Assembly: GCA_043814965.1 (NCBI GenBank)
Contig: JBDRJN010000002.1
Span: 39,984 to 103,983 of the forward strand
Source: Candidatus Omnitrophota bacterium
GTDB lineage: Bacteria; Omnitrophota; Gorgyraeia; Gorgyraeales; Gorgyraeaceae
DNA: 64,000 bases
Direction of reading: 5' to 3'
Under the pieces are notes generated by a model, which saw only the letters and a program-made list of their open reading frames with translations, was not told where the DNA came from and did not search any database. Shown here one piece after another: positions 11,570-34,101 of this stretch. Numbering within the stretch: the stretch's first letter is position 1; each line of letters begins with the position of its first letter. A program made the position numbers and the translations under genes.

Positions 11570-11595
11570 GTAGGGGAGCTTTAAAGCTCCCCTAC
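11570..11595. repeat. REP-like perfect palindromic hairpin GTAGGGGAGCTTTAAAGCTCCCCTAC (copy 1 of the family)
   Basis: 26-nt perfect palindrome. It sits in a 130-bp element also seen at 16881-16995. A second 9-bp hairpin lies at 11639-11661. Confidence 0.6.
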
Positions 11596-11713
11596 TAAAG
11601 AAAAGGTTTAGGCGAGAGCGAAAAAGAAAATAGAGTAACCCTGCACCATACTGGTGCAGGGCACGCTGGTGAAATTTAACGTTCTCGAAAACAGCGCTTG
11701 CCCGCAGACAAGG

Positions 11714-13869: not shown

Positions 13870-13889
13870 ATTTTATTGTAAAGGAAGGA

Positions 13890-15278
13890 TTAATTAGCGG
13901 AGTTATTATTTAACCAAAAAGGCTCGCCATTGTGTATATCAACTATATCCAGCGCGACCTTTACTATGTCTTTATCATATTTTGTGCCAGCATGGTCAGT
14001 GATCTCTTTTACAGCTTTATTGATCCCAAGAGCAGCTCTATATGGCCTATGGAATGTCATTGCCTCCAACACATCAGATATAGCAAGTATCCTTGCCTCT
14101 GGTATAATATCTTTTCCTGAAAGCCCCCTTGGGTACCCCTCGCCGTTTAGCCTTTCATGATGCTGGTATATAGCTTCTGGAAGAGGGAATGGGAATGTAT
14201 GGGGTTTAAGCATATCATAGCACTTTATTACATGTTCTCGTATCATCTCGTGTTCTAGCTTGGAAAGTATACCAGGTTTGTTGAGTATCTCAAGAGGAAT
14301 AAGTATTTTTCCTATATCATGCAGTTCCGCAGACATCTTTAACTCAAGTATCTTGTTTTCATCCCAGCCCATTGCCTGAGCTATTCTTTCAGCTATTATT
14401 GATACACGTCTAGTGTGTCCGAACGTATAAGGGTCTCTTATCTCAAGGACCTTATCAAGCACTTTTAGAGAGGTCACTACTATATTAAGGCGGCTTTTTT
14501 CCATCTTGTCATACGCAGTGATGTCTCTAGTGATACCCATAGTCCCTATGATAGTGCCGCGCTTATTGTGTATAGGTATCTTTGTGGTAGTAACGCAGTT
14601 ATAAGTGCCGTTTGGAAGAAGTGTGCGTTCGATCTTGCCTATGATAAGTTTTCCGGATTTAAGTACATATGTATCATCCTCGAACATTAACTTGGCCTGT
14701 TCTTTAGGGAAGAAATCAAAATCAGTCTTGCCCATGAGCTCTTCAGGCCTTTTCTTGAAACCATTAGCGTAAAAACGGTTCACTCTTATCAGCCTATTTT
14801 TATTGTCCTTAAAATATACTGCATCAGGCAGGTTATCAAGGAGGTTTTGAAAAAGCTCTTTTTCAAACGCGAAACTTTCTTCAAGCTGTTTGTGATCGGA
14901 TATATCTTCTATGACGCCTTCAAGGCAAAGATATCGGCTGTCATAAGGTGATTCTGTCACATACGCAGTAATGCCTACCCAGACATCTTTTCTGTCTTCC
15001 CTGATGAATTTTGCCTCATATAGCCTTACGATCTTTTCTTTCTTGAGGATATTAAAGAATATATTTGCGTCCTTCTGATGTTTAAAGAGGGACTTAAATG
15101 TAAGTTGTTGTATCTTGTCATCGGAGGAAAAACCCAGGATCTTGCTAAGGCTTGAATTTATAGCAAGAAACTTTTCATTAGGGGATAGCTGGTATCTAAA
15201 TAGACACAACCCTAACTTATCAGCTGTAGAGAACTTAAGATAAAACTTGTCTTTTCCTTTGGATTTGACTTTGATCAT
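13890..15278 (-). CDS. PAS-sensor HD-GYP c-di-GMP phosphodiesterase
   Basis: HDIGKILIP and HHERLNGEGYP (HD and GYP motifs). Two PAS-like segments in the N-terminal half. Confidence 0.75.
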   Translation of the reverse strand: MIKVKSKGKDKFYLKFSTADKLGLCLFRYQLSPNEKFLAINSSLSKILGFSSDDKIQQLTFKSLFKHQKDANIFFNILKKEKIVRLYEAKFIREDRKDVWVGITAYVTESPYDSRYLCLEGVIEDISDHKQLEESFAFEKELFQNLLDNLPDAVYFKDNKNRLIRVNRFYANGFKKRPEELMGKTDFDFFPKEQAKLMFEDDTYVLKSGKLIIGKIERTLLPNGTYNCVTTTKIPIHNKRGTIIGTMGITRDITAYDKMEKSRLNIVVTSLKVLDKVLEIRDPYTFGHTRRVSIIAERIAQAMGWDENKILELKMSAELHDIGKILIPLEILNKPGILSKLEHEMIREHVIKCYDMLKPHTFPFPLPEAIYQHHERLNGEGYPRGLSGKDIIPEARILAISDVLEAMTFHRPYRAALGINKAVKEITDHAGTKYDKDIVKVALDIVDIHNGEPFWLNNNSAN

Positions 15279-17101: not shown

Positions 17102-18076
17102 ATGAGTGTTTCTTACAAAGAATTAGGACTGGTAAATACACGAGAGATGTTTAAAAAAGCAATGGCTGGCAAGTATGCTATTCCTGCATATAACTTCAAC
17201 AATATGGAGCAGTTACAAGCGATAATCACTGCCTGTATAGAGAGTAGATCACCTGTTATCTTACAAGTATCATCCGGCGCCAGAAAATACGCCAACCAGA
17301 TACTCTTAAGGCACATGGCAAAAGGCGCTATTGAGATAATAAAAGACTCTGGAAGCAATATTCCTGTTACGCTTCATCTAGACCATGGTGATACATATGA
17401 GCTATGCGTATCCTGCATAGAGAGCGGGTTTTCCAGTGTCATGATAGACGGCTCAAGCCACACATTTGAAGATAATATCAAACTGACAAAAAAGGTAGTT
17501 GAATACGCCCATAAATATGACGTGACAGTAGAGGGTGAGCTTGGCGTGTTAGCAGGCATAGAGGATGAAGTAAGCCATGAACAGTCTCACTATACCCACC
17601 CTGAAGAAGTAGAAGAATTTGTCAAAAAAACCGGTGTGGACAGCCTTGCGATATCTATCGGTACAAGCCATGGCGCTTATAAATTTAAATTAGCGCCAGG
17701 AGAGAGTGTGCCGGAATTACGTTTTGATATATTGCATGAAGTTGAGAAAAAACTTCCTGGTTTTCCAATAGTCTTGCATGGAGCAAGTTCTGTGCCAAAA
17801 GAATATGTGGATATCATCAATAAGTATGGCGGAAAAATGGAAAATACTGCAGGCGTGCCTGAAGATCAGCTCCGTAAAGCTACTCAATCAGCAGTATGTA
17901 AGATCAACATTGACTCAGACGGCCGCTTAGTAGTAACTGCAAAGATAAGGGAAGTATTCGCCAACTCTCCAAAAGAGTTTGACCCTCGTAAATACCTGGG
18001 CCCGGCAAGGACAGAACTTGTAAAGATGTATAAGCACAAGAATGAACATGTGCTTGGAAGCGCTGGAAAGGCGTAA
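17102..18076 (+). CDS. fba: Fructose-bisphosphate aldolase, class II
   Basis: N-terminal KYAIPAYNFNNMEQ and the LHLDHG motif. 324 aa. SD GGAG precedes the start. Confidence 0.85.
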   Translation: MSVSYKELGLVNTREMFKKAMAGKYAIPAYNFNNMEQLQAIITACIESRSPVILQVSSGARKYANQILLRHMAKGAIEIIKDSGSNIPVTLHLDHGDTYELCVSCIESGFSSVMIDGSSHTFEDNIKLTKKVVEYAHKYDVTVEGELGVLAGIEDEVSHEQSHYTHPEEVEEFVKKTGVDSLAISIGTSHGAYKFKLAPGESVPELRFDILHEVEKKLPGFPIVLHGASSVPKEYVDIINKYGGKMENTAGVPEDQLRKATQSAVCKINIDSDGRLVVTAKIREVFANSPKEFDPRKYLGPARTELVKMYKHKNEHVLGSAGKA

Positions 18077-18333
18077 TGATAGATAAGCTTGCTTTGATCA
18101 GCTCAATAATACTTCCTTTGTGGAACATTCCGCTTATTATAAAGATCATAAAGCGGCGTTCAGCCGAAGATATTAGTATGTCCTGGGCAATAGGTGTATG
18201 GACGTGCCTTTTAATAATGCTCCCATCTGGCCTAAAGACTGATTTTTTGGTCTGGAAGGCATTTACTGTATCTAACTTCATTTTATTCAGTGGGGTAGCT
18301 TTTTCTACGGTTTTGTTCCACAAGAAGAAATAA
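18076..18333 (+). CDS. Small membrane protein, function unknown
   Basis: 85 aa with 3 hydrophobic helices. Start overlaps the fba stop (ATGA), suggesting translational coupling. Confidence 0.4.
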   Translation: MIDKLALISSIILPLWNIPLIIKIIKRRSAEDISMSWAIGVWTCLLIMLPSGLKTDFLVWKAFTVSNFILFSGVAFSTVLFHKKK

Positions 18334-18391
18334 CCTATCATAATTTCTATAACTCTAATATTTACAATAAGTTAAAATCTCTTCCAAGCCC

Positions 18392-18419
18392 TTGAAATAC
18401 CCTTATAGTATGGTATAAT
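18392..18419 (+). promoter_or_regulatory. Sigma-70-like promoter for the giant gene
   Basis: TTGAAA (18392-18397), 16-nt spacer, TATAAT (18414-18419). About 130 nt upstream of ATG 18547. Confidence 0.5.
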
Positions 18420-18546
18420 TAATATATGGTAATACACGCTATATAAGAGCCTAAATAGCTCTAATATAGCTTTTATAAATAACCTTAAATCTATCCGATG
18501 GAACCAGTCTTTAGGCTGGGGAAAACGGAAATTTTTTACCCCTTTT

Positions 18547-21500
18547 ATGACACACTTTAAAAAACATTTAATTAAAAACCCCATCTCCAAGAAAGTCAAA
18601 GTTTATGGCTTTAAGCTTATGACTTTACTTATAGCATCTATATTTTTCTTAAATAATATAGCTTATGGGATGGATCTGTCTGGTACAGCCCACCTAAGAG
18701 GTAACTCTCCATTTGATAAGATAAATGAAAAAGAAGATAAAGACAGGGTCAATGAACTACTTAAAGCAGTCCAGGATGCATCTGAAAAGAAAAAAGAAAA
18801 CAAGGAAGACTCGAGAGGGCCATCTATTTCCTCGACAGGCGTAGGCGATGAACACCAGGCAAATAGAAATATCCTGGAGGGCATACTCAGCACTGCTTTA
18901 AGACAGGGAAAGATCGATCCTAAAGAAAAAGAAAGAAGATTAAAAGAGTTTGATGACTTTGGGAAAGCCTTATCAGATGATATCGACCTAGAAGTAGACA
19001 ATAAAAACGTATTTTTAATAAATGGGCAAAAGCTTATTGTTGTGGATGGAGTAGATGTTTTATCAACTACAGAAGAAGGGGAACAGTATGCTTCAGCAGG
19101 CCTTAGGAGAGGGGCAGTATATATTACGAGGAATAAGTTTAATGAATGGGTGCTTGCAGGTACGCTTATGCAGAAGATACGACACGAGCAGGATGAAGTC
19201 AGTCATTTATTAAAACAAGCTGAAAATATGGGCCTATCGAGCGAGGAATTGAGCGAATATCTGAAAGACCCTCGCAATAAAGCTTCTGCCAAAAACATGA
19301 TCCAGGATGCGCATAAATTTGCTGAAGAGAATGAAAGATTAAGCGCATTGCTTAGCGAGGCCTCAGAAGATGAGGCCAGGCAGTCCTTTAAAGATAAGTT
19401 TCTTGATATGTTTAGAGGAAGATCCAAGCTATTGCAGGCACAAAGAGAGAATGCTTTAGTCAGAGAGAATGGAAGGGAAGTAAAGGTGTTTAGAGATAAT
19501 AGCCTTACACAAGAGTTTGCAGATTTTACAAAATCTCTAAAACTTCAAAAAGTCAGAGTTGTAGAAGAAAGCAATAATGGAAAAAATAAGATATATGCTG
19601 TAGATGATGTTAACGATAATAGATTTTTAGTATTTGAAGAAGAAGGCCATGTTTACATGATAGCAGTAAAAGCTGCTACTTTGTCTACGGGAGAGTTTTT
19701 TATAGAGACAAAAGATGAGCAAGTGTTACAAGGTTTTAAGAAAGCATGGGATGGGTTTGGAAGCAGAAAGACTGGAAGATTCGACGAGCATAAATTTTTA
19801 TATGCGTCAGCATTTTCAAAGAGCGGGATAGAAGTTTTGTTGAATAAGGTAGCAGGCAACCCTATTTTACGCAATTTATTTGCTCTGATAATAGAAAGAT
19901 CTGATGAGCTGCGCTTAGCGGGCGGGTTCTTTCTGAGTGATAGACAAGACGCAGGCGGATTTTACATGCCATATTTGAAATTGATCTTGTGGAGAGCTAA
20001 GCATAGCATTCCTAGCGCAGGGCTTATAGGGCATGAAGCAATGCATCATCTATTTAGTGAAGATGGAGAAATCTATAAAAAATTCCATAAGTATATAGAA
20101 GAGAACCATGAAAAGCTTCTAAAAGAGCTAAGGCATAGCCCATTATATTCTTATTTATCCGAAAAGAACCTTATCGATGAAGTGATCGCGTATTTAATGG
20201 ATGGCATAGCAGATGGCCGCGTAGAAATATTTCAATTTGGTAGATTGAAATACGGAGATCTGAAGATGTTTAAACAAATAATCCCGTCACTTGAAGAATA
20301 TTTTCCAGAAGAACTTCTCTTGCGCTTTTCCGATGAAGATATTATACGCGGGAGATTTTTTGATCTGCTTAAAGAATTATATAAGATAAGATCTGAGAAC
20401 AAGGGAATGGATTTAAAAGACGCTCTTAGTGAATGCGCCAAGAGGGAATATGGAAAAGAAGCGCCATCTCATGAGACATTATTGATAGTGGCAGATTTTT
20501 TCAAAGAAGCAGGTGATCTTAAAAGAGCAGAAAATATATACAAAAGATTATTAGATAGTTCTGAAGTTGATATGGCAACAAAAGCGATCATACGATTAGG
20601 TTTGATAGACCTGTATGTAAAAGAAGGAGATGTGCCAGAAGCAGGTAAATTGTTTGAGGTTTCAAAGGAAGAACTTACAGATGCAGGGTTTACAGAAGAT
20701 CTAATTGATAAAGCTTTTTCAATGGTCATATATCCGTCCGAGGTTTTGGCTATTTTGCTTTCAGTGACAGATGCGGAAACCATAAGAGACATATTTTCTC
20801 ATACTATAAAGGCAATAGAGAGTAAGATCGTAAAGGTAAAAGAAAAACTACAGCCCACCACAGTTCAATTTGAAATTGGAGGCCGTACAATAGAATGGGA
20901 TAGAGAATTTGTCAACCCTTACGATGTTAATATTACAGATGAAAAAACGATAAGGGACAGTGTGACATCTGGCCTAATAAAGAAAAGGAAAGATCATGAT
21001 GAATTATTGAGTTTATTAAATAAATCCGCGTTTTTATATTATTTATCAGGAGATAATGAGAAATATGAGTCTACTTTAAAAGAAGTAGAAAAGACTGAGC
21101 AAGAGATTTTAATGTTGGAAGAAAAGATCGAAAGAAGGTTAGAAGAAGACAGAGAGGCCTCCGTAAACGAAAGTTTAGAAAAGAAAAAATCTGAAAATGA
21201 ATTTTGGGATAATTTACCTAATACAGATTGGCTTAGAGATATGAAGATAGAGGATTTCCAGCTAATATATGGTGAACTTGGTAAAGTTGAGCCAGTAAAT
21301 AACCAGGTAGCCGATATAGTACCTATATTTGGCTATATAGAAGACCTATCATCTCAAGAAGATATCAAGGCCCCTGAAGCAAGTGCTTTATTGTTAGAAG
21401 TCGAACAGTTTGATTATAGCGCTGGTATTGAGCTAGTAGAGTATGACCCAGAACTTATAAAGAATATGACCTTATTACACAAAAGAAACCACTCGTCATT

Positions 21501-24500
21501 ATTTAGATGGGTATTATCAGCTATCAAAAATATTATCGGAGATAAGAGTTTAGGTGAAAAAGACAAAAAATATTATATGAAGTTTGTTTTTGATATCCTG
21601 AAGACTTATCTTAAAAATACGATCTTAAAAGATAGATTAAGCAGTGCGTTCAGGGAAAGATTAGAATCATTAGGCCTAAGCAGTGATGCAATAGGCTCTA
21701 TTATAGAACGCGGGGCTTTATCTATAGAAGATGGGCAGGTAAGAGGCAACATGGATATATTGAAGTTAATAGCAGAGATAGAAGGAGTCAAAGTAGGTGA
21801 TGTCTTAAGAAGGAGCTTGTTCCACGAAAGAGCGCACGATATCCTTGAGCTTTTATTAAAAGAAGATAAAAAAGATGTGCTTAAGGATGTAAAAGATGGC
21901 CTTGGCAGTGACTATTATCTGGTAAAAGCTATTATGGAAGAAGAGTTCGGCGAGTTTGAAAGTGAACAGGAATTTTTAGAGGAATTAGTCGTCAAGTACT
22001 ATACGTACAGATTTTCCGGCAGTGATACTTCTATTTTTGAAAAAAGCGAGATGCTAAAAGTAGCTAGCGTTATAGATTCTTTAATGCCGGATGGCCTAAA
22101 GGAGCTATTTACTATAAAAGGAGAAAACACACAACATGCGCAGTCCGAGAAGTTGAAAGAGCTTTCCAGGGAATCCAAAAGATTAGGCGGAAAACTCGAG
22201 ATAGAATTTGAAGAAGGTGAAGCTATAAAAGAACTTTCTGATGAGATAAAAAATGTTATAGCTAGTATAAATATGACTCAAAGCGCACAAGACCCTGAAG
22301 AAGCTGTATCAATTAATGAAACTGTGTTAGGGCTAGGAGCTAAGATGGTGACTTTGCGAGATATAGATTTAGAAGAGATAAATAGGCTTAGGAGATCAAA
22401 TATAGACAAGTTTGTTATTGAAAGAAAACCAGGCCTAGAGCCAATAATAAATAGCGATACAAGAGATCAGCAGAATTGGCCATATACATATTCTGACCTA
22501 AATATCGTTGATTCCAATTTTGGCATAGATATATTTGATATGATAGAGAAAAAATCAGATTCCGAACCAGATAAGACTTTTACTGTAGTGGATTGGGGGT
22601 GTGGCGCAGGCATAGCCTTGAATGATATAGCAAAGAAGTTAAAAGAAAAAGGCATAAACAATGTAAGATTAATTGGTTTTGCTGATCAATATCATTCTGC
22701 GTGGGAGAAGGCTGACGAGAGTATAACCTTTATTTTAGACGAAGCCAAAGCGCTGCCCAAATATCGTGACGTATTAAAAAGCCCATATTTAATTTATAGT
22801 TTTATGGGCCTAAGGCACTTAATAGGAAAGAATATTGATGATCACTCTGATTATAGCGACTATATAATGGAGTTAACCGATAATTTATCCAAAGACGGGA
22901 AAATAATCACTGAATATGATAGATCTAAATATGAAAGGGTATATGAACATATAAAATCAGATTTAGCCTCCAAAGGGATCGAGTTCGAACAAGTAATAAA
23001 TCCAGTAAGAGGCTCTGCTATGATCATATCCAAAGAAGATCCAAATAAACAGCCTGCCTCAAGTGGAAAAATAGAAGAGCCGATGATCAGGTTTATTCCA
23101 GGTATAGTGGATATGGTAGATCTGGGAATTTTATTCAAGAAATATAAAGGAAACCTTTTTTATAGAGTTTCTGACGAAGGAGATACTAAAAAGGCAGTCG
23201 TATTTTCTCACGATAAGAACAAGAATGAAATAGTACGCGGTGAATGGCAGCTTGTAAATAGATTTGACCTTAATATATGGGAGCCAGTGTATATTCCCAG
23301 CTCTACAGCTTCATACGGAGAAAAGAAAGCATATGAATTTATAACTAAATTCGATGAGCTTATATATAAGATAGAACCTTTGAATTTTTTATTCCCAGAT
23401 ATAAATCTTAGGGATATCAGAAACCAGTCGATTTATCTAAGAGATATCGCTAGGAACCACAAAACTGAGCAGCAATTATTAAAGGTACTATCCAAGGCAA
23501 AAGATGCGATAGAGGACAAGGTGATAAAGCTGGCATTGAAGGACAGCAGTAAGTTTGACATCTCAAGACAGAATAGGATCAAAGAACGCCTAAAATCCAC
23601 AAAGTCAGATTTTAAAGGATTATACAATATCTTGTCTGACATAGAAAAGAATCTCAATAAAAAAGGCACAAAGACTAATATAGTAGGAAAATTGACTTTG
23701 TTCGCAGCAGGTGTTTTGAGTTCATTAGGCACTATGGAGGCAAGTGATATCTCAGGTCAAGATTTATCCCAGGTAAAAGACCCAGCACCCATAGTGCAGT
23801 ACGTAGATAATGCGCCAAATGCTATAGATCTATTAGAACAAGATCCTAAAGATTTAGCGCTTCAGGATGAGAGGTTTATTATAGACGTAGGAGGTATTGA
23901 GTTTGACCTTACTGGTAAAGCAATGCGGGAGGTGTTGGATGACGGGACTACCGTAGCTACAGTCCTGGAGTATATAAATATTAAAGATGGGAATTTTGAT
24001 ATAGGGACCCATAAAGACGTATTTATCTTCCATCCAAATGACAAGATAATAATATCTCCTGCGAAACCCGGCATACCCAGCATTATAACTTTGAATACTT
24101 CATGGGAGGTCACGCCTCCTTCTTTCGTTGATCTCGGCACTCTATACATTAAGGGTTCTGAAGAATATAAGACTATACTTACTTTGGTAACATATGGCAT
24201 GGGTAGTCTCGATGAAAACGATATCCCTGCATTTAATAATGGACGTATGACAGAGTTTGACATGGCGCCATATGAGTTATCAGGAAGCTTAATATTATAT
24301 CCCGCGTATGGCTCTTATGGTACTGGCCGCAATTCATCTACGGGGGAACTCGTAGGATTTATATTTATAGATAATAAAACCAAAGAAATATTGATGATAG
24401 ATAGAGAGAACTATAGTTTTAATGAACTTAAAATGTTATATGAAGCGACATATAAAGGAGTGACGAATATTGATGAATTTGAGACTGCTACAAACAGTCT

Positions 24501-27500
24501 TATAAAAAGAGGAGGTAGTATTTATAATGAATTACGCAGCGCCCGTTCCTATATATTGGACGCGGTTACTAATGATAAGGAATTTAAATTAGAACTTTTA
24601 GATGGATCAGGCAATAAGACAGGAGAATTCGTAATTTTTAATAAAGGAACAAGGATAGATATGAATACGATGATGCCTAAAGACGGCTCAAAGGGCCTTC
24701 TGAATGGAGATAGTTCTAAACCCGTAAGATATATGAAAGGTGATATCATAACCGAAGAAGAATATCAAAAAGACATGTTTTATGATGATGAGAACCAGGG
24801 TATGCTAGATCTGCAAAATACCTCGTTTTCCTTGAAACAGCCTGATCTGGCAGGGCTAAAGACTACCCATGATACAAAATCACGAGTTCTGTTAGAAAGC
24901 ATATTTGACAGTAGGAAAGTAGACCTTGGTAGATATGCGGTAGATGAGCCTGTAACCGAAGGGACAGGCGTGAATCTATACTGGGTCAAAGACACTCAAT
25001 CTGAACTAGAATTCTTTGTTTTGTGTGTAGACAGTAGGGGAAGCATTATTTTAATAGCTGAAGGTATGGAAGGCTATGATGAACTACTTTCTCCTTACAT
25101 TTCAAATGATATCGAACGCCTTAAAAACAAGATGGTTGAGATAATAAGCCGCGGTATAGATAATCCATATGGCATAGGAGACGTCATCCTCTTTGATAAA
25201 AATAATATTTCAGTAAGGCTCAATAATGGACAGGTGATAGACTATAAGTTTAGGTCAGAAGAAATAGACAATCCTGATGGAACAATAAGCTTGGTATATA
25301 TAGGTGATAAGCCTGTAAATGTAGGCAATCAGACCTTCGAGAAAGGCGACAAGATAGTCTTGGAATGGAGCGATGATAAGTACGGAAAGAGTGACACAGG
25401 ATTTATCATTAAAGAGATCGTAAAAGGAGAATTATATAAAGATATCATTGATACCCAGGATAAAAAAAGCGAGGAAAGCAAGATAGGTGATAAAGAAGTC
25501 CATTCTCTCATAGCTGTACTAAGAGCAGGTGATTATAATAAGATAATCTGGGCCAAAAAAATGTTGCTGCAAATGGGAGATATAGCAGTAGATCAGCTTA
25601 TTGAAGCGTTGAGCGATAGTTCAATAAAATCCAACGTTCTTAGTTCAATTATAGATATATTGGGAAATGTCGGTGATCCAAAGGCAATACAGCCATTATT
25701 GATTTCTATTGAGAAACAGTCTAATTATTTTGGTGCCTATTTGGCTGCAAAAGCAGTATTCAAGATCGATGAAGAAAAACTTTCTACAATATTCCAGGCC
25801 TTGGCAAATAGGGCTAAGGTTAAAGGCAATAGCTGGAGAAGCTATCTACTATTTGCAAATAGTCTAAATATGGGATTATCCGACCATCAAAAAGAACGTT
25901 ATAGTGTTTTCTATAATGGATTACAAGCTGGAATACAGGAAGGAGTTCTATGTATTCATGAAGCAGGTATGGACAATAATCAGATCGAGGATGTAGGAAT
26001 TCGTAGGGTATTTTCGAACATAGATGAAGTAAAGGAATGGATTAATAGAGATTATGAATTGGGTTTTCAATATTATCCTCCTTTTGACGAAATGTCAAAT
26101 ATGTTATCGCCAGATTTTATATTACAGATCAGTAATGGAAAAATTTCCATGGTTTATCATACAGATGTAAAACTTAGACAGATAGTTGGTGAAAAAGAAG
26201 TAGAAGAAGAGCTACGAAATATTGGCTTTATTGGTGGTTCTGGAATTATAGCAGTAGAGAAGGGAGGCGATATCGGGAATAATAGCCTATATCTAAGAGT
26301 TTTTAATAGTGTACATTCACATAGCCATCCTAAAAAATATGAATCGCATATCGTAGTTCCATCCGAGACAGATCTGAATTGTTATAAAGGTGAAATTGAT
26401 AAACGTAACGAGTTAGAGTTAGAAGATCAAAAAAAGGATCCTTCAAAGGCTGATACTTTGGCTGAATCAACTTATGTCTATACTAAAATATTGGGATTTG
26501 GGTACAAAGATAATGAAGCTGAGCGTATTACAAAAATGATCTCAGATTTTTATATGGAAAACAATATAAGTGTTTTAGAAAACTTACCAGAGTTGGAACA
26601 GATCAAAGGGCTCAAGGATATATTATCAGGTAATCTTGAGATAGAATTCGGACTTCCAACGAATTTAGAAGAAGTATTTACTGGAAGAAAGGCAAATTGT
26701 TATGGCAGCAGCCAACTGTTTAAGATATTAGGGGAAATGATAGGTTTGGATATAACTCCGTTAGAGATAATAGTGTCCAATGATAAACAACTGCATCTTT
26801 CTAGCCATGGAGCCTTATTAGTTAATTTAAGTAATGGCACTTCAGTAATTGTGGATATGGCTTTGCCTAGTATGGGTGAAAATGGCATTAGTGATGCTTT
26901 TTCTATAAATATGCAATACAAGAAAGAAGGGAACTATCTTATATTGAATGATAATGTCAACCCTTTAAATCTATACTATAAATTTAGAATAGGAGATATC
27001 GGGTTGATTAATTCATGGGTTATCTTATCGAATGTGCATTATCCCGATTCTTATACTATTCCGGATGTAGATAGTAATAATGTTAAGATAATAGAGAAAG
27101 CTATAGAGAAAGATCCTCTGTACATACGCTCATATTTTGGTCTAGCAAACGCGTATTGCACAAATATATTATACGCCAATGTTTATTCTGAAGATGATAT
27201 TATCAAATGGGTAAAAGATAATCCTGAAAATATAGAAAAGGCGTTGAAATTGATGGATAAGGCCTTAGGATTGGACCCTAAAAATGAACAGGGCCTATTG
27301 TACAAAAATAGACTAGAAGAATTGTTGGAAAAAGCAGAAAGCAGAGGAAGTCTTGAAGTTATTCCAAATTCCGACTCCGGCTCATTGATGCCTGAGTCAA
27401 GCATGCAGCCTCACAGATTAGAACTTTTAGATGGGACTGGCAATAAGACAGGAGAATTCGTTATTTTTAATAAGGGGACAAGGGTAAAACCTAGCACGAT

Positions 27501-29982
27501 GACACCCGAAGACGGCTCCAGGGGTTTCTTAAATGGCAATAGCTCAAAACCTGTTAGATATATGAATGGTAAGATAATAACCGAAGAGGAATATCAAAAA
27601 GATATGTTCTATGATGGCGGTAAAGATCAGGGCATGATAGATTGGAATAATATACCTTCTAATATATCTCCCAAGGTTCCTTTTACTATCTCTAGTATTA
27701 ATAGTTATGATTTTAAGCTAAATGGAGCATTAGATAGAAATAACGTGGCAAGTATCTTACCGGAAGGCCTTAGCGTAATCCCGTATTATACCGGAGGAGG
27801 TGTCTTACCTATTGGATTGACAGTAGGCTATGAGAATTTATTCGGGAATAATATGATAGGAGGAGGGTTTAATACTATAGGGCTGAACTTAAGAGAGTTC
27901 GAAGCTAAATACGGATATATGTTAGATAAAGATGAATATTTAGCTGGTTCAATCAAGCTGTTTGGGAAAGGTTACCATCCTCTTTTGGATAACACATTGA
28001 TAGCAAAGTTTCAGTATGCAGGCGGAAGACATCAATTAACAGCTGGATATGCAAACTTTCTTGCGCAGTTCGCTAATAAAAATATGAAAAATAGCTCTAC
28101 AAACCTGATATTTTCTAACTATATATATGATTATGACAAAAATATCAATGAAGGATTTGATTATTATTTAAATATAAATTTGAATGGGGGCTGGAACTCT
28201 GCAAATTCTGAAACATGGGAGTCTTTTTTGGGGTTGTTTGACGAAGGATTTTTAGCTTATAGTAGATTTTTAGGCAAGGCAAAATACGCATTATCCATAG
28301 ATGACCATTTTAATGCCTATGGCGAGAGCGTATTGGAACTTGGGGCCAGAACAGAGCTTAATAATATTTTGATGTTAAAATGGCGCTTGTCCCCGTCTAC
28401 AAAATTGTCAGGAGGGCTTCAAACCAGGCATAATCTAGACCTATGGTCTAGTGTCGCGCTTAGAGAAATTTATGGTTCTACAGAAGTTTTATTACCGTTT
28501 ATAATAGATTTAGAGCTTTACGGAAACTATCTGGAAGTAAAGGGCAATTATTACCCTAAGACTAATTTTTTAGGATTTGAACTTACACTTAGGACAGATT
28601 ATATATGGATAAAGGCATTTAAAGAATCTTATTTGTCAGATGTCCCAAGGTATGGCATAGGGCTTTCGGTTCCTTTGGGCAGGGATAAAGAAAGATATAT
28701 GCCAGATTTTTACCAGTTTGATAATAGAGATGTTTTTATAACTGATTCTATCGTGCAGATGCCTGAAAACATCTTAGCTTCTTTCGAAGAATATCCAGCA
28801 GAAGTTGTCCCGCAAGACCCTGCTTTTTATGAGGAGCTTAAAAAGAGATTAGTGGAGTCAGGCCTACTACGTCCGGAAATTCCCATAGAAGAGATAAAGT
28901 ACCATTATATACTGGAGCTAAAGGCATCAAGAGACATATTTGGCCTGACATCTGCAGAAGTAGTAAATAATTTTAGGAAATATAATTGGGGACTTAATGA
29001 ACTTTTATATCTTGGGAAGTCATTAGAGTGGGATTATCATGAAAGTATTTTTACTACTCCTCAAGAGACCTGGAGCAAAGAACCAAGTGTGTGCAGGGAC
29101 CATTCAGCTTTTCTTGCATTAATCATGAGAGATGGCATGGGATTGAGCACTGCAAGGGCGTATAATCTTATTGGTATGTATGGTTTTGCGCATGTAGTAG
29201 CAGTAGCTGTGGGAGAAAATGGGCATGGCAGAGAAGGATATGTTATGGTAGTTGATAAGGATAAGATCTATCTGCCAGGTGAGAATGGTTTTCCAGCAAT
29301 AAAATATGAGAATGAGGGCTCTTTTGTAAGGGCGTTGAGCTATATATATCCCAATGCTATTACTACACAGGGAGGAGATACATTTTTTGGAAAGATATTA
29401 AGAGATAATATAGAGAAGCCGATATTTGATATTAAAAGTAATAAAAATAATCCTTCACTGGAGGAAGAAGAATTAGAACAAGATGGGGTAAAAGAAGAAC
29501 AGAGAGATGATAAAGAAATAGAAAAACAGGAAGATAAAGAACAAGATAGTGATGGTTCTTTGATGATGCCTATACCATTGGTCCCTGTAGGAAAGAGAAA
29601 TAACAACACTTTTACTGATATACCCAAAAGATCTACGGCTAATAGTATGAGCCAGATCGAAGCTGTATTCGCAGATACTATCATAGGTAATGAAGAAAAA
29701 TTCGAAGACTGGCTGCGTGATAAGCGTAATGCAGGGCACCAGGTAGTGATAATATCAGAACCCGAAGATTTTAAGAATATAGAAAAATATAAAGAAATAG
29801 CCTATATAAAGGTTCTCGGGGAAGACATAAAGGATGAAAGTTATATAAATAAACTAAGGGAGTTAAGAGTATTATGTGAATTTAAGCCATTTAGTGGTTT
29901 TAATTTTGATGATCTACTGCAGGTAGAGTCGAATCTCGACCAATATAAAGAAGTCCTGGTATCAGTAGCAGGGGATATGTAA
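18547..29982 (+). CDS. Giant secreted/surface multidomain protein (3811 aa): HExxH x2, SAM-methyltransferase motif, HEAT/TPR, beta-rich aromatic region, transglutaminase-like core
   Basis: Uninterrupted 11.4 kb ORF with an N-terminal signal-like segment (LMTLLIASIFFLNNIAYG). HEAMHH at about 20032 and HERAHD at about 21823. VVDWGCGAGIAL at about 22590. CRDHSAFLALIMR..GFAHVV at about 29090. Own promoter and terminator. Confidence 0.85.
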   Translation: MTHFKKHLIKNPISKKVKVYGFKLMTLLIASIFFLNNIAYGMDLSGTAHLRGNSPFDKINEKEDKDRVNELLKAVQDASEKKKENKEDSRGPSISSTGVGDEHQANRNILEGILSTALRQGKIDPKEKERRLKEFDDFGKALSDDIDLEVDNKNVFLINGQKLIVVDGVDVLSTTEEGEQYASAGLRRGAVYITRNKFNEWVLAGTLMQKIRHEQDEVSHLLKQAENMGLSSEELSEYLKDPRNKASAKNMIQDAHKFAEENERLSALLSEASEDEARQSFKDKFLDMFRGRSKLLQAQRENALVRENGREVKVFRDNSLTQEFADFTKSLKLQKVRVVEESNNGKNKIYAVDDVNDNRFLVFEEEGHVYMIAVKAATLSTGEFFIETKDEQVLQGFKKAWDGFGSRKTGRFDEHKFLYASAFSKSGIEVLLNKVAGNPILRNLFALIIERSDELRLAGGFFLSDRQDAGGFYMPYLKLILWRAKHSIPSAGLIGHEAMHHLFSEDGEIYKKFHKYIEENHEKLLKELRHSPLYSYLSEKNLIDEVIAYLMDGIADGRVEIFQFGRLKYGDLKMFKQIIPSLEEYFPEELLLRFSDEDIIRGRFFDLLKELYKIRSENKGMDLKDALSECAKREYGKEAPSHETLLIVADFFKEAGDLKRAENIYKRLLDSSEVDMATKAIIRLGLIDLYVKEGDVPEAGKLFEVSKEELTDAGFTEDLIDKAFSMVIYPSEVLAILLSVTDAETIRDIFSHTIKAIESKIVKVKEKLQPTTVQFEIGGRTIEWDREFVNPYDVNITDEKTIRDSVTSGLIKKRKDHDELLSLLNKSAFLYYLSGDNEKYESTLKEVEKTEQEILMLEEKIERRLEEDREASVNESLEKKKSENEFWDNLPNTDWLRDMKIEDFQLIYGELGKVEPVNNQVADIVPIFGYIEDLSSQEDIKAPEASALLLEVEQFDYSAGIELVEYDPELIKNMTLLHKRNHSSLFRWVLSAIKNIIGDKSLGEKDKKYYMKFVFDILKTYLKNTILKDRLSSAFRERLESLGLSSDAIGSIIERGALSIEDGQVRGNMDILKLIAEIEGVKVGDVLRRSLFHERAHDILELLLKEDKKDVLKDVKDGLGSDYYLVKAIMEEEFGEFESEQEFLEELVVKYYTYRFSGSDTSIFEKSEMLKVASVIDSLMPDGLKELFTIKGENTQHAQSEKLKELSRESKRLGGKLEIEFEEGEAIKELSDEIKNVIASINMTQSAQDPEEAVSINETVLGLGAKMVTLRDIDLEEINRLRRSNIDKFVIERKPGLEPIINSDTRDQQNWPYTYSDLNIVDSNFGIDIFDMIEKKSDSEPDKTFTVVDWGCGAGIALNDIAKKLKEKGINNVRLIGFADQYHSAWEKADESITFILDEAKALPKYRDVLKSPYLIYSFMGLRHLIGKNIDDHSDYSDYIMELTDNLSKDGKIITEYDRSKYERVYEHIKSDLASKGIEFEQVINPVRGSAMIISKEDPNKQPASSGKIEEPMIRFIPGIVDMVDLGILFKKYKGNLFYRVSDEGDTKKAVVFSHDKNKNEIVRGEWQLVNRFDLNIWEPVYIPSSTASYGEKKAYEFITKFDELIYKIEPLNFLFPDINLRDIRNQSIYLRDIARNHKTEQQLLKVLSKAKDAIEDKVIKLALKDSSKFDISRQNRIKERLKSTKSDFKGLYNILSDIEKNLNKKGTKTNIVGKLTLFAAGVLSSLGTMEASDISGQDLSQVKDPAPIVQYVDNAPNAIDLLEQDPKDLALQDERFIIDVGGIEFDLTGKAMREVLDDGTTVATVLEYINIKDGNFDIGTHKDVFIFHPNDKIIISPAKPGIPSIITLNTSWEVTPPSFVDLGTLYIKGSEEYKTILTLVTYGMGSLDENDIPAFNNGRMTEFDMAPYELSGSLILYPAYGSYGTGRNSSTGELVGFIFIDNKTKEILMIDRENYSFNELKMLYEATYKGVTNIDEFETATNSLIKRGGSIYNELRSARSYILDAVTNDKEFKLELLDGSGNKTGEFVIFNKGTRIDMNTMMPKDGSKGLLNGDSSKPVRYMKGDIITEEEYQKDMFYDDENQGMLDLQNTSFSLKQPDLAGLKTTHDTKSRVLLESIFDSRKVDLGRYAVDEPVTEGTGVNLYWVKDTQSELEFFVLCVDSRGSIILIAEGMEGYDELLSPYISNDIERLKNKMVEIISRGIDNPYGIGDVILFDKNNISVRLNNGQVIDYKFRSEEIDNPDGTISLVYIGDKPVNVGNQTFEKGDKIVLEWSDDKYGKSDTGFIIKEIVKGELYKDIIDTQDKKSEESKIGDKEVHSLIAVLRAGDYNKIIWAKKMLLQMGDIAVDQLIEALSDSSIKSNVLSSIIDILGNVGDPKAIQPLLISIEKQSNYFGAYLAAKAVFKIDEEKLSTIFQALANRAKVKGNSWRSYLLFANSLNMGLSDHQKERYSVFYNGLQAGIQEGVLCIHEAGMDNNQIEDVGIRRVFSNIDEVKEWINRDYELGFQYYPPFDEMSNMLSPDFILQISNGKISMVYHTDVKLRQIVGEKEVEEELRNIGFIGGSGIIAVEKGGDIGNNSLYLRVFNSVHSHSHPKKYESHIVVPSETDLNCYKGEIDKRNELELEDQKKDPSKADTLAESTYVYTKILGFGYKDNEAERITKMISDFYMENNISVLENLPELEQIKGLKDILSGNLEIEFGLPTNLEEVFTGRKANCYGSSQLFKILGEMIGLDITPLEIIVSNDKQLHLSSHGALLVNLSNGTSVIVDMALPSMGENGISDAFSINMQYKKEGNYLILNDNVNPLNLYYKFRIGDIGLINSWVILSNVHYPDSYTIPDVDSNNVKIIEKAIEKDPLYIRSYFGLANAYCTNILYANVYSEDDIIKWVKDNPENIEKALKLMDKALGLDPKNEQGLLYKNRLEELLEKAESRGSLEVIPNSDSGSLMPESSMQPHRLELLDGTGNKTGEFVIFNKGTRVKPSTMTPEDGSRGFLNGNSSKPVRYMNGKIITEEEYQKDMFYDGGKDQGMIDWNNIPSNISPKVPFTISSINSYDFKLNGALDRNNVASILPEGLSVIPYYTGGGVLPIGLTVGYENLFGNNMIGGGFNTIGLNLREFEAKYGYMLDKDEYLAGSIKLFGKGYHPLLDNTLIAKFQYAGGRHQLTAGYANFLAQFANKNMKNSSTNLIFSNYIYDYDKNINEGFDYYLNINLNGGWNSANSETWESFLGLFDEGFLAYSRFLGKAKYALSIDDHFNAYGESVLELGARTELNNILMLKWRLSPSTKLSGGLQTRHNLDLWSSVALREIYGSTEVLLPFIIDLELYGNYLEVKGNYYPKTNFLGFELTLRTDYIWIKAFKESYLSDVPRYGIGLSVPLGRDKERYMPDFYQFDNRDVFITDSIVQMPENILASFEEYPAEVVPQDPAFYEELKKRLVESGLLRPEIPIEEIKYHYILELKASRDIFGLTSAEVVNNFRKYNWGLNELLYLGKSLEWDYHESIFTTPQETWSKEPSVCRDHSAFLALIMRDGMGLSTARAYNLIGMYGFAHVVAVAVGENGHGREGYVMVVDKDKIYLPGENGFPAIKYENEGSFVRALSYIYPNAITTQGGDTFFGKILRDNIEKPIFDIKSNKNNPSLEEEELEQDGVKEEQRDDKEIEKQEDKEQDSDGSLMMPIPLVPVGKRNNNTFTDIPKRSTANSMSQIEAVFADTIIGNEEKFEDWLRDKRNAGHQVVIISEPEDFKNIEKYKEIAYIKVLGEDIKDESYINKLRELRVLCEFKPFSGFNFDDLLQVESNLDQYKEVLVSVAGDM

Positions 29983-30007
29983 AACAAGACACAAGTTGCA
30001 AGACACA

Positions 30008-30040
30008 GGTCACAGGTAATGTATTGTGACCCTTTTTTAT
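30008..30040 (+). terminator. Rho-independent terminator of the giant gene
   Basis: ggtcaca (30008-30014) pairs with tgtgacc (30025-30031), followed by TTTTTT (30033-30038). It lies 26 nt after stop 29982. Confidence 0.6.
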
Positions 30041-30057
30041 TGTGTTATAATATCTCC

Positions 30058-31572
30058 ATGAAGATCATACCTATATTTATCCCGCATGCAGGGTGTCCAT
30101 ATAAGTGTATATATTGTGACCAGAATAAGATCTCAGGCGCAGTGAGGCTTCCTTCAAAAAAAGAGGTCCAATCTATAATAGATGAGAGGCTAAAAACCAT
30201 CCCAAAAGAAGAAGTAAAAGAAATAGCGTTCTTCGGCGGCACGTTCACATCTTTACCTAATAAATTACAAGAGGAATATCTGAGGATAGCCCACTCATAT
30301 GTGAAAAAAGGCGTAGTTGATTCTATTCGCATGTCTACCCACCCTGAATCAGTAACTAAGGAATCCATGAAAAGATTTAAAAGATACGGAGGAAGATTAG
30401 TAGAGCTTGGCATACAATCCCTGGATAAAAAGGTCTTAAAAAGTATTAAAAGAGAAGTAGATCTTAAGAATGTTAAAGATGCAGTTGAGATCATAAAGAG
30501 TTCAGGGCTTAAATTAGGGGTGCAGGTGATGCTGGGCCTTCCAGGAGATACACTTAAAAGGTCTATTGATACAGCCAAGAGACTTGTAAGATTCAAGCCA
30601 GAGACAGCCCGCATATATCCAGCGCTTGTCATAGAAGGGACAGAGTTAGCTGGTTTATATAAGAAAAGAAAATATAAACCAATGGCCTTAAAAAGAGCTA
30701 TAGAAGAAGCAAGTGTTATAACAGATATCTTTGAAAAGAATAAAGTAAAGGTTATCCGTATTGGCCTTCATCCTTCAAGGGACTTGGAATCAAAAGAGAC
30801 TTTGTTAGCCGGGCCGTACCATGTGAATTTTGGGAGTTTAGTGCGTTCTAGGATCATGCAAAATAAAACTAGAGATGTCAAAAAGGACATTGCTTTAATA
30901 GACCCACGGATGCCGAGGAAAGCCAAAGAAAAACTTAAGTGCCTAAATTTTAATTTAATCGAAGTACCATTGCATAAAAGGCTTCAAAAACCTATTAAAG
31001 GTCATACTGATATGATGATCTTTAAGTACAATAAAACTGTGGTATATGAACCGAGACTTGAAAAGATAGCAAGGATCTTGAGGCTAAATGGATATAAATG
31101 CATAAAGGGAGATGAGATCTTATCAGGTAGATACCCCAAAGATATAATCTATAATGCATGCAGTGTTGGTAGAGCGATAATCCATTATAAAGGTGATATT
31201 GATAAGCATATAAAATCTTTGAAAGCAGGGCATATACTGGTTAATCAGGGATATGCAAAATGCTCTATAGTGCCTGTAGATAATAAGCGCATTATTACAT
31301 CTGATACAGGTATAGCTAATGCTTGGACTAAAAAACGCGGGATGTCTCTACTCGTAAAGCCTGGGCATGTGAAGCTGCCTGGATATAAGGCTGGATTTAT
31401 AGGAGGCGCAACAGGAGTGACAGATAAGACAGTGTTTTTTGTAGGTAGACTAGATACTCACCCAGATTCTAGAAAGATAAGGAGTTTTATCAAAAAATCA
31501 GGCAAAAGCATAGTAGAGCTCTACGAGGGCCCGTTATATGATGTAGGGAGTGTAGTATTTTTTGATTGCTGA
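30058..31572 (+). CDS. Radical SAM protein with a C-terminal 250-aa domain of unknown function
   Basis: IPHAGCPYKCIYCDQ (CxxxCxxC), with the glycine-rich FFGGTFTSLP. Start moved to ATG 30058 because 30019 lies inside the upstream terminator. Confidence 0.75.
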   Translation: MKIIPIFIPHAGCPYKCIYCDQNKISGAVRLPSKKEVQSIIDERLKTIPKEEVKEIAFFGGTFTSLPNKLQEEYLRIAHSYVKKGVVDSIRMSTHPESVTKESMKRFKRYGGRLVELGIQSLDKKVLKSIKREVDLKNVKDAVEIIKSSGLKLGVQVMLGLPGDTLKRSIDTAKRLVRFKPETARIYPALVIEGTELAGLYKKRKYKPMALKRAIEEASVITDIFEKNKVKVIRIGLHPSRDLESKETLLAGPYHVNFGSLVRSRIMQNKTRDVKKDIALIDPRMPRKAKEKLKCLNFNLIEVPLHKRLQKPIKGHTDMMIFKYNKTVVYEPRLEKIARILRLNGYKCIKGDEILSGRYPKDIIYNACSVGRAIIHYKGDIDKHIKSLKAGHILVNQGYAKCSIVPVDNKRIITSDTGIANAWTKKRGMSLLVKPGHVKLPGYKAGFIGGATGVTDKTVFFVGRLDTHPDSRKIRSFIKKSGKSIVELYEGPLYDVGSVVFFDC

Positions 31573-32682: not shown

Positions 32683-33549
32683 ATGCCCATTATATTCGGC
32701 GGAAAAGATACTGACTTTACTGCATTCAATCATTCAAAGGCTGTTATCGTGCCTGTTCCTTATGGAAAGACTGTAAGTTATAAGAAAGGCACAGAGCACG
32801 GGCCTCTTGCAATATTAAAGGCCTCGGATAACCTGGAGCTTTTTGATGAGGAATTAAACCTTGAAACATATAAATTCGGTATAGCTACACTTCCTTTTTT
32901 AAAGGTAGGAGGGCTTAAACCTGAAAAGATGATATCTCGAGTAGAAAAGAACGTATCAAAGGTTCTTGAAAAAGAAAAGTTTCCTATAGTGATAGGAGGA
33001 GAACACTCTGTTACTATCGGGGCTATAAAGGCTGTCAGAAAAAAACACAGTGATTTTTCAGTACTATATTTTGACGCGCACAGCGATTTAAGGGATAGTT
33101 ACAATCACTCAAAGTACAATCATGCGTGTGTAGCAAGAAGGATATTGGAGTATGCTGGTATAGTTGAGGTTGGCATAAGAAGCTTTAGTAAGGAAGAGAA
33201 TGATTTTTCTGTAGAAAATAAGCTTAATGTCATAAAGATGTTGGATGTATTGGAAGATAAAGACATAAAAAATTCTATAAAAAGAGGCTTAAAGCAAAAA
33301 GTATATATCAGTATAGACCTTGATGTATTTGATCCAAGTATCATGCCGTCGGTCGGCACTCCTGAGCCAGGCGGGATGAGCTGGTATGGTTTTTTAAATA
33401 TATTAAAGGAAGTAATAAAAGAAAAACACATAGTCGGGTTTGACGTAGTAGAGCTTTGCCCTACAAGGAACATGGTGAGGTCTGATTTTTTTGCAGCTAA
33501 ACTTATATATAAAACGCTCGGCTACATCTTTTCCAAAAAGGAGAGTTGA
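32683..33549 (+). CDS. speB: Agmatinase (arginase/ureohydrolase family)
   Basis: Mn-ligand motifs GGEHS, FDAHSDL and SIDLDVFDP. Confidence 0.75.
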   Translation: MPIIFGGKDTDFTAFNHSKAVIVPVPYGKTVSYKKGTEHGPLAILKASDNLELFDEELNLETYKFGIATLPFLKVGGLKPEKMISRVEKNVSKVLEKEKFPIVIGGEHSVTIGAIKAVRKKHSDFSVLYFDAHSDLRDSYNHSKYNHACVARRILEYAGIVEVGIRSFSKEENDFSVENKLNVIKMLDVLEDKDIKNSIKRGLKQKVYISIDLDVFDPSIMPSVGTPEPGGMSWYGFLNILKEVIKEKHIVGFDVVELCPTRNMVRSDFFAAKLIYKTLGYIFSKKES

Positions 33550-33552
33550 TAT

Positions 33553-34098
33553 ATGCTGGTACCGACCAAGGTATTCTTGACAAAAGGCGTTGGCTCAAAT
33601 AAAGAAGAGCTCAGGTCATTTGAGCTTGCATTGAGGGATGCTGGTATAGAAAAATGCAATCTTGTAGAAGGTTCTGGCATACTTCCTCCAGGATGCAAGA
33701 TAATATCTAAAAATGAAGGCATAAAGGAACTTAAACCAGGCATGATAACTTTTGCGGTTGTCTCCCGCTGTGCAAGCAATGAACCGAGGAGGCTTATAGC
33801 TGCTTCAATTGGCCTGGCAAAGCCAGCTGATGATGCTGCTTATGGATACCTTTCACAGAACTATGCATATGGCCAGACAGATGAAGTAGCAGGGGACTAT
33901 GCAGAGGATATGGCGGCTTGCATGCTTGCCTCTAGTCTCGGCATAGAATTTGACGAGGAAAAATCCTGGGACGAAAAAAAGGAATTTTTTAAAATAAATG
34001 AACAGATCATAAGGACCAGCAATATCACTCAATCTACTATTATAGGCAATAATGGCTGGTATTCGACTGTTATTGCAGCAGCAGTATTTATCTTCTAA
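33553..34098 (+). CDS. pdaD: Pyruvoyl-dependent arginine decarboxylase
   Basis: MLVPTKVFLTKGVG..LVEGSGILPPG is PdaD-like. 181 aa. Confidence 0.7.
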   Translation: MLVPTKVFLTKGVGSNKEELRSFELALRDAGIEKCNLVEGSGILPPGCKIISKNEGIKELKPGMITFAVVSRCASNEPRRLIAASIGLAKPADDAAYGYLSQNYAYGQTDEVAGDYAEDMAACMLASSLGIEFDEEKSWDEKKEFFKINEQIIRTSNITQSTIIGNNGWYSTVIAAAVFIF

Positions 34099-34101
34099 AA
34101 A

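Follow-up and report, generated by a model that had tools for sequence, protein, structure and literature searches.

This 64,000-nucleotide stretch of a Candidatus Omnitrophota contig (JBDRJN010000002.1; the whole stretch is called the window below) contains one open reading frame (ORF) encoding a giant protein of 3,811 residues, and the question it raises is what such a protein does and on which side of the membrane it does so. Our favoured reading, to which we assign a probability of roughly 0.5, is that the giant protein is a mosaic, exported by the Sec route and located in the envelope or at the surface of this uncultivated Omnitrophota bacterium. It draws chiefly on the following features.

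18547 to 29982, + strand: ORF of 3,811 amino acids, identical to NCBI MFH1478247.1 from Met25 on
18547 to 18672, + strand: predicted signal peptide, residues 1-42, from hydropathy and a layout shared with proteins P0005, P0008 and P0108
18703 to 19347, + strand: conserved Omnitrophota module, residues ~53-267, 49-58% identical to segments of P0001-P0003 and L081-L083
26614 to 27051, + strand: transglutaminase-like Cys-His-Asp domain 1, residues 2690-2835, with the triad C2718, H2754 and D2770
27064 to 27336, + strand: tetratricopeptide (TPR) repeats following domain 1, residues 2840-2930
29617 to 29979, + strand: conserved C-terminal domain, residues 3691-3811, by homology to P0008 and P0108

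The clearest functional evidence comes from the transglutaminase-like domain. When residues 2560-3759 were compared by phmmer with 1.84 billion representative proteins, 131 matches were obtained, about 125 of them on residues 2706-2880 with E-values down to 2.6e-24, and the matching proteins are mostly of 300-700 residues and carry this domain followed by TPR repeats. Two homologues, P0014 (34 bits) and P0006 (28.3 bits, in a protein of 3,357 residues), exceed the 23-bit cutoff of Pfam PF01841 (Transglut_core) at the aligned position. In an alignment of 61 sequences the residues equivalent to C2718 and H2754 were each conserved in 61/61 and that equivalent to D2770 in 46/61, with all three present in the giant protein, and the Cys and His were also invariant in alignments A2 and A4. 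An AlphaFold2 model built from 32 sequences gave a predicted local distance difference test score (pLDDT) of 86.4 and a predicted template modelling score (pTM) of 0.86, in which the Cys starts a helix while the His and Asp occupy neighbouring strands. As structural neighbours the domain has menin, arylamine N-acetyltransferases, TglA, the bacterial transglutaminase 4xz7, LapG and PeiW; a PDB profile search with the domain and its TPR repeats together was dominated by TPR matches. The alignments and the model indicate that residues 2690-2835 are a bona fide transglutaminase-fold enzyme domain with an intact triad. This is the one well-supported catalytic domain of the giant protein, its activity being predicted from fold and triad, and together with the adjoining TPR repeats (residues 2690-2930 in all) it had been overlooked in the initial annotation.

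The N-terminus points to export. Residues 17-42 are the only strongly hydrophobic segment of the giant protein, bearing out an earlier description of a signal-like segment here, and the predicted signal peptide comprises a Lys-rich n-region, the hydrophobic core LMTLLIASIFFL and the c-region NNIAYG/M (continuing NNIAYG/MDLS, with a slash at the presumed cleavage point). The same layout is found at the N-termini of P0005 (MIKFKK...FNSPVYG/TDLS), P0008 (...FTITNIAYG/APS) and P0108 (...FTNIAYP). A second transmembrane segment at residues 723-741 was considered and rejected, as this stretch contains Pro, Ser and Glu and its score was marginal. The NCBI gene call starts at Met25 (window 18619), 24 codons after Met1 (18547), and so loses the Lys-rich n-region. 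Because the N-terminal layout from Met1 (M-x-x-FKK) resembles that of P0005, and also those of P0008 and P0108, the comparison supports the Met1 start and suggests that the NCBI start was called too late. Composition was also informative: Cys accounts for 9 of the 3,811 residues (0.24%), as against 1.43% in the 41 other ORFs of the window, a contrast somewhat inflated by the presence of several Cys-rich radical SAM enzymes among the 41, and for 0.36% of P0008. Signal-peptide or lipoprotein-like N-termini were present in 77/120 of the full-length homologues that combine the transglutaminase-like domain with TPR repeats. An extracytoplasmic location fits both this and the low Cys content, and the giant protein would thus be exported by means of a Sec-type signal peptide.

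Several points weigh against such an assignment. The Met25 gene call removes the charged n-region. The giant protein, scanned whole and as tiles against Pfam and NCBIfam at curated cutoffs, gave no model above cutoff, Transglut_core included. About 66% of it is without a detectable homologue, leaving most of the chain unexplained (a significant relative exists for about 34%, and named families cover about 11%), and no secretion, pilus, predation or mobile-element genes flank the gene. A SAM-dependent methyltransferase would be without its cofactor outside the cytoplasm, and relatives with the same termini contain nucleotide-needing PGK-like and UDPGP-like domains.

The last two points lend themselves to the main alternative, in which the hydrophobic segment is an uncleaved anchor and the giant protein a membrane-tethered, cytoplasm-facing multi-enzyme scaffold. 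The methyltransferase-like region described below would need S-adenosylmethionine (SAM), and the proteins sharing the termini carry domains that use ATP or UTP (PGK-like in P0008, UDPGP-like in P0108). Many long Omnitrophota proteins have been proposed as intracellular multi-enzyme scaffolds. Methyltransferase and sugar-metabolism modules have been read as compatible with a cytoplasmic face (10.64898/2026.06.07.730766). We nevertheless consider this arrangement unlikely: the Lys-rich stretch lies before and not after the hydrophobic core, which predicts an N-in, C-out orientation, the AYG/M c-region is of the cleavage type, hydropathy indicates no further transmembrane segments, Cys is six-fold depleted, and the family of proteins with the transglutaminase-like domain and TPR repeats is mostly signal-peptide- or lipoprotein-bearing.

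Export as an envelope or surface protein is further placed in context by the modules that the giant protein shares with other proteins of its lineage. The N-terminal module, of 170 residues, contains the invariant elements QANRNIL, EEGEQYASAGLRRG and HEQxE and recurs as an internal module in three long Omnitrophota proteins (P0001-P0003, one of which is named Candidatus Omnitrophica by NCBI) and in three metagenome loci; no Pfam or PDB relative of it was found. What follows the module varies among these relatives and consists of HExxH, HATPase-like or methyltransferase-like segments. P0001-P0003 and L081-L083 also have in common an N-terminal domain of ~340 residues and a C-terminal domain marked by GGIDFRYLPIV, with variable segments between these and the 170-residue module, giving a cassette-like architecture. 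At the other end of the giant protein, the 120-residue C-terminal domain is 61% identical to the C-terminus of P0008 and 41% identical to that of P0108, with no match in PDB or Pfam. P0008 (MFH1478974.1) is a protein of 2,740 residues with a PGK-like domain and a ...NIAYG signal peptide; its accession number makes an origin in the same metagenome-assembled genome (MAG) as the giant gene probable. P0108 and P0135 are UDPGP-like signal-peptide proteins of 815-827 residues ending in the same 120-residue domain, and all three proteins would, from their sequences, be nucleotide-dependent enzymes that are seemingly exported.

A third shared module lies towards the C-terminus and is followed by an acidic linker.

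27757 to 28746, + strand: beta-rich Gly/aromatic region, residues 3071-3400, first half of the P0005-like unit
28939 to 29436, + strand: Cys/His core CRDHSAFL...AHVV...VVDKD, residues 3465-3630, second half of the P0005-like unit, by motif only
29452 to 29562, + strand: acidic linker, residues ~3636-3672, from the translation, with EEEELEQDG at residue 3639

Residues 3071-3628 form a 560-residue unit that is 30% identical (E 1e-53) to P0005, a stand-alone signal-peptide protein of 734 residues. Both the acidic linker and the aromatic/Gly-rich beta region had been described from the translation and were confirmed here, the latter by composition: aromatic and Gly content is highest at residues 3001-3400, and the beta-rich region has the highest aromatic content and alternating-hydrophobicity score of the whole protein. 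These two properties are suggestive of an outer-membrane barrel. A profile of the unit found no further relatives, and searches of PDB and Pfam gave no significant match and no outer-membrane protein family. In the second half of the unit, CRDHSAFL occurs at residue 3516 and GFAHVV at residue 3546, with the core motif spanning residues 3516-3572. C3516 and H3549 are kept in P0005 and their spacing fits a transglutaminase fold, so that the transglutaminase-like core proposed in the initial annotation stands as a motif and is plausible on that basis, but neither the giant protein tile nor P0005 gave a Pfam match to this core and hhalign of the core against the domain 1 profile returned a probability of 0.7%. 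An AlphaFold2 model of residues 3046-3645 from a two-sequence alignment had a pLDDT of 34 and was unusable.

A barrel in this position would allow the giant protein to be an outer-membrane-anchored adhesin or scaffold, in which residues 3071-3400 retain and display the rest of the chain and the Cys/His domain releases it in the manner of LapG. The alternating-hydrophobicity signal is indeed strongest in the Gly/aromatic-rich region, the barrel-like region and Cys/His core form a unit conserved in the signal-peptide-bearing P0005, and domain 1 counts LapG among its structural neighbours. Set against this are the low pLDDT of the unit, the lack of any outer-membrane protein family match in the tile and unit searches, and the position of the barrel-like region, which is not C-terminal. 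An anchored adhesin is possible but improbable.

Between these modules the exported mosaic protein that we favour contains helical repeats, a duplicated segment and several enzyme-like motifs.

20032 to 20046, + strand: first HExxH motif (HEAMH), residues 496-500, by motif only
20437 to 20676, + strand: TPR-like helical repeats, residues 631-710 (TPR_19 E 1.2e-4, TPR_21 E 6e-3, below cutoffs)
21823 to 21837, + strand: second HExxH motif (HERAH), residues 1093-1097, by motif only
22573 to 22962, + strand: divergent class I SAM-methyltransferase-like region, residues 1343-1472, from sub-threshold profiles
24577 to 24843, + strand: internal repeat copy 1, residues 2011-2099, 68% amino acid identity to copy 2
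25477 to 25809, + strand: HEAT repeats of PBS-lyase/alphaRep type, residues 2311-2421, from phmmer against PDB
26314 to 26373, + strand: JAMM/MPN-like motif HSHSHP-x11-SETD, residues 2590-2609, by motif only
27406 to 27681, + strand: internal repeat copy 2, residues 2954-3045, 68% amino acid identity to copy 1

The helical repeats noted in the initial annotation were recovered. HEAT repeats at residues 2311-2421, which include the LIEALSDSS at residue 2351, matched alphaRep/PBS-HEAT structures with an E-value of 2.5e-12, while the HEAT_2 profile match (E 3e-4, 21.4 bits) fell under its 27.7-bit cutoff; TPR were detected weakly at residues 631-710 and 2850-2871. The two copies of the internal repeat, of about 90 residues, matched each other with an E-value of 2e-37 and are ~78% identical in DNA, and copy 2 directly precedes the beta-rich region. 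Orphan sequence extends over residues 268-2010 and 2100-2310; a word-index search with residues 1250-2300 and a scan of GTDB genomes with the whole giant protein found no relatives.

All of the motifs previously quoted for the giant protein were located at their residues of the translation, and the enzyme-like ones fared unevenly. HEAMHH is present at residue 496 and HERAHD at residue 1093, giving two HExxH motifs where 0.07 would be expected (P(>=2)=0.003 by shuffling). The motifs themselves are thus real and enriched, but no zincin profile exceeded its cutoff, no peptidase family was found for either tile at E<=10 in Pfam or NCBIfam, and the part of P0002 around its HExxH showed similarity at no better than E 0.014 when three sequences were searched. 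The methyltransferase motif I, VDWGCGAG at residue 1348, occurred in 0.07% of shuffles (chance P ~0.0007), and weak matches to the region were consistent with one another: Methyltransf_31 at E 0.044 over profile positions 3-125 of 145, and BioC (0.013), UbiG (0.05), PrmC (0.11) and ketoArg-MT (within 0.013-0.11). All of these fell below their cutoffs, the motifs after motif I were read by eye only, and a PDB search of the tile gave nothing significant. A divergent class I methyltransferase at residues 1343-1472 is plausible from motif I and these matches, which is as far as the earlier methyltransferase claim could be carried. A JAMM-like motif, absent from the initial annotation, was found at residues 2590-2609, with a P of ~0.02 for a loose pattern and 0/3000 shuffles for a strict one; residues 2430-2700 gave no Pfam or NCBIfam match.

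Enzyme-like segments of this kind could also be read as the cargo of a delivered multi-effector toxin. By analogy with MARTX toxins, the Cys-protease-fold domains would release methyltransferase and metalloprotease effectors inside a prey or host cell, where these would use the cofactors of the target. Such a toxin would account for several enzyme-like segments, including two Cys/His cores, in one exported chain, for the enrichment of HExxH motifs alongside a methyltransferase-like region, and for a conserved N-terminal module with different cargo in each relative (HExxH, HATPase-like, methyltransferase), and Omnitrophota have been reported to be predatory or host-dependent. The Pfam and NCBIfam scans, on the other hand, detected no RTX or translocation repeats, no toxin, pretoxin or immunity families and no markers of type I (T1SS) or type VI (T6SS) secretion systems or Rhs, no immunity or secretion genes are adjacent, and the effector identities are drawn from motifs alone. 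We regard a delivered toxin as possible but improbable, and as slightly less probable than an anchored adhesin.

For an exported envelope or surface protein the following scheme can be proposed. The signal peptide would carry the giant protein across the inner membrane. Its body would have been put together by recombination from a small pool of lineage-restricted modules, namely the 170-residue N-terminal module, the 560-residue beta-rich and Cys/His unit and the 120-residue C-terminal domain, the last of which recurs at the ends of other long signal-peptide proteins, with HEAT/TPR scaffolds and divergent enzyme-like segments interspersed among them. The transglutaminase-like domain (residues 2690-2835) would cleave, cross-link or acyl-modify a protein or peptide substrate, as members of its superfamily do, and the TPR repeats that follow it probably hold the substrate. 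Additional reactions may be contributed by the HExxH segments and by the methyltransferase-like one. The likeliest role of the whole would be the processing or binding of proteins or cell-wall peptides outside the cytoplasm, either on the cell's own envelope or on that of a partner or prey cell.

A more far-reaching and doubtful extension is that the giant protein may represent a class of exported Omnitrophota proteins defined by their shared ends rather than their interiors. The defining ends may be the ...N-I-A-Y-G signal peptide and the 120-residue alpha/beta C-terminal domain, the latter perhaps acting as a sorting or anchoring signal for an envelope pathway, and the P0005-like unit may be a self-contained membrane anchor and processing module. 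Were this true, the extracytoplasmic nucleotide-dependent enzymes of the class would imply action inside a partner cell, or on material derived from one.

All of this presupposes an intact and expressed gene. As previously described, the ORF is single and uninterrupted, running on the + strand from the ATG at 18547 to a stop codon ending at 29982 with 3,811 codons and no internal stops. The window has a G+C content of 35-40%, and a run of 3,811 sense codons in DNA of 36% G+C is not a chance open frame. The GenBank entry MFH1478247.1 (P0004; "hypothetical protein", Candidatus Omnitrophota, on a 164.5-kb contig) is 100% identical from Met25, but it derives from the same assembly and therefore gives no independent confirmation of ORF integrity; as the same sequence, P0004 was rejected for that purpose. 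The promoter and hairpin terminator attributed to the gene were both located.

18392 to 18419, + strand: sigma-70-like promoter TTGAAA-N16-(TG)TATAAT, best consensus match, 11/12
30008 to 30041, + strand: intrinsic-terminator-like sequence, an 8-bp hairpin at 30008-30031 followed by the T-run CTTTTTTATT

The promoter-like sequence, with its TG extension, is a consensus match only and the top-scoring one within 18000-30200, and the total number of promoter-like sites across this 12-kb region was not above that in shuffled sequence. The terminator-like hairpin lies 26 nt downstream of the stop codon. As called mechanically, the ORF that follows, a radical SAM/DUF6873 gene, begins at 30019, inside this hairpin; from alignment with the related genome L001 its start is most likely the ATG at 30059, and it has a promoter-like site of its own (TTGTGA-N16-TATAAT, 30024-30051).

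One could still suppose that the giant gene is an artefact of assembly or annotation, or a decaying and non-functional gene, given that a single assembly holds it and that most of the chain is orphan sequence. This is very unlikely. The length of the open frame at 36% G+C is beyond chance, its codon usage is that of the native genes, homologues that keep catalytic or core residues exist for five separate segments, and the internal repeats, at ~78% DNA identity, have diverged too far to cause misassembly.

The genes around the giant gene are ordinary chromosomal and housekeeping genes. They include the genes for pyruvate kinase and class II fructose-bisphosphate aldolase (FBA), together with those for radical SAM enzymes, a deoxyhypusine-synthase-like gene, agmatinase, pyruvoyl arginine decarboxylase, Maf, histidine kinases and a pyruvate formate-lyase behind a ZTP riboswitch. 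This ZMP/ZTP riboswitch (RF01750, 43.6 bits, window 41214-41301) lies directly 5' of the pyruvate formate-lyase gene (41406-43616), and the two form a classical pfl-motif arrangement.

Among GTDB species representatives the best matches to the FBA were L001 (90%) and then four Candidatus Omnitrophota MAGs (80-84%). L001 (CAYPYS010000009.1) is labelled Planctomycetia, though the next-best FBA matches are Omnitrophota. On either side of the giant gene it runs collinear with the window: the alignment pairs window 17107-18326 with L001 10006-11233 and window 30057-30777 with L001 11288-12008, whereas the 11.7 kb between (window 18327-30056, containing promoter, giant gene and terminator) correspond to 54 bp in L001 (11234-11287). 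The giant gene is missing from this syntenic locus and appears from this one comparator to be a lineage-specific accessory gene; since such a gene is present in one genome and absent at the same locus in its nearest relative, genes of this kind would be accessory and subject to fast turnover. No direct or inverted repeats of at least 8 nt were found at the cassette borders. Relative synonymous codon usage (RSCU) of the giant gene correlates with that of the rest of the window with an r of 0.86, compared with 0.84-0.91 for other large genes, and G+C at third codon positions (GC3) is 0.32, inside the window range. A recent foreign origin or mobile element was rejected on account of this native codon usage, and also of the absence of border repeats of that length and of an integrase or transposase gene nearby.

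Three more differences between the window and L001 were observed, at 11358-14013, 6644-8501 and 33531-34507. Two radical SAM genes (11714-13869) and a further radical SAM gene (6723-7991) are without aligned counterparts in L001, and the PvlArgDC/Maf stretch was not aligned to it. A small hydrophobic ORF of 85 residues between the FBA gene and the giant gene (18076-18333) is kept in L001 (10984-11246) and, because of this conservation, is probably a real small membrane protein.

Comparison with known systems places the giant protein as follows. Domain 1 has the fold of the PF01841 type, and the order of domain 1 and its TPR repeats is that seen in about 125 bacterial homologues; these are mostly signal-peptide proteins or lipoproteins of 300-700 residues, whereas here the domain is one module of a 3,811-residue chain and its own sequence lies under the Pfam cutoff. 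The match of residues 2311-2421 to PBS-lyase/alphaRep HEAT repeats (PF13646, PF03130) differs from the known arrays in comprising only about 3-4 repeats, and for this reason the array is taken as a generic scaffold from which no function can be read. MARTX and polymorphic toxins are similar by analogy only, in having a long exported chain with several enzyme-like modules, Cys-protease-fold domains, and conserved framing modules around cargo that varies among relatives; they differ in that the giant protein has no RTX repeats, cysteine protease domain (CPD) or known toxin/immunity families and no dedicated secretion genes nearby.

The closest likeness is to the long and giant proteins of the same phylum. 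Omnitrophota are ultra-small, uncultivated and probably host-dependent or predatory, and their very long proteins, almost entirely uncharacterised, are suspected of acting as interaction factors. Long Omnitrophota proteins with methyltransferase, peptidase, HEAT and TPR modules and signal peptides have been described (10.1101/2023.11.21.568195; 10.64898/2026.06.07.730766), and 94% of them have a signal peptide or transmembrane helix (10.64898/2026.06.07.730766). The giant protein is likewise encoded by one very long ORF with a predicted signal peptide and mixes methyltransferase-like, peptidase-like, HEAT and TPR modules in a chain with large stretches that lack annotation, and the PGK and UDPGP domains of relatives sharing its termini recall the 'multi-enzyme' class of these proteins. 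The initial statement that such a combination has few precedents was thus too strong, since similar mixtures are already published, and the combined protease, methyltransferase and transglutaminase chemistry that it proposed was only partly substantiated and is not unprecedented in the phylum. The prey- or host-attack role for which it named the protein a prime candidate was likewise overstated and is at most a possible one, no secretion-system or predation genes flanking the gene. The resemblance that it drew to giant proteins of uncultivated lineages holds in so far as Omnitrophota are known for them, but at 3.8 thousand amino acids (kAA) this protein is below the thresholds of 10-30 kAA or more applied to 'giant' proteins (10.1101/2023.11.21.568195; 10.64898/2026.06.07.730766). 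Those papers stress many transmembrane helices, SecA-like domains and nearby type II secretion system (T2SS) and PilZ genes, and Archaeovorin-type proteins exceed 30,000 residues and have numerous transmembrane regions, a divergent SecA/DEAD domain and glycosyl transferase (GT), glycosyl hydrolase (GH) and NUDIX domains (West-Roberts et al. 2023, 10.1101/2023.11.21.568195). The giant protein differs in its length of 3,811 residues, its one N-terminal hydrophobic segment in place of multiple transmembrane helices, the absence of SecA/DEAD-like, GH, GT and NUDIX domains from the Pfam and NCBIfam scans, a gene that is not adjacent to T2SS, pilus or PilZ genes, and a presumed lack of sequence similarity to those proteins other than in generic repeats. 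It overturns no current view and adds a tractable case, small enough for piecewise expression, with two kinds of handle: a transglutaminase-like domain with TPR repeats whose triad is, from alignment and model, intact, and three rare modules shared with other long Omnitrophota proteins that could mark common steps of export, anchoring or processing. It is not an Archaeovorin but belongs to the same general phenomenon as a smaller protein with only a signal peptide.

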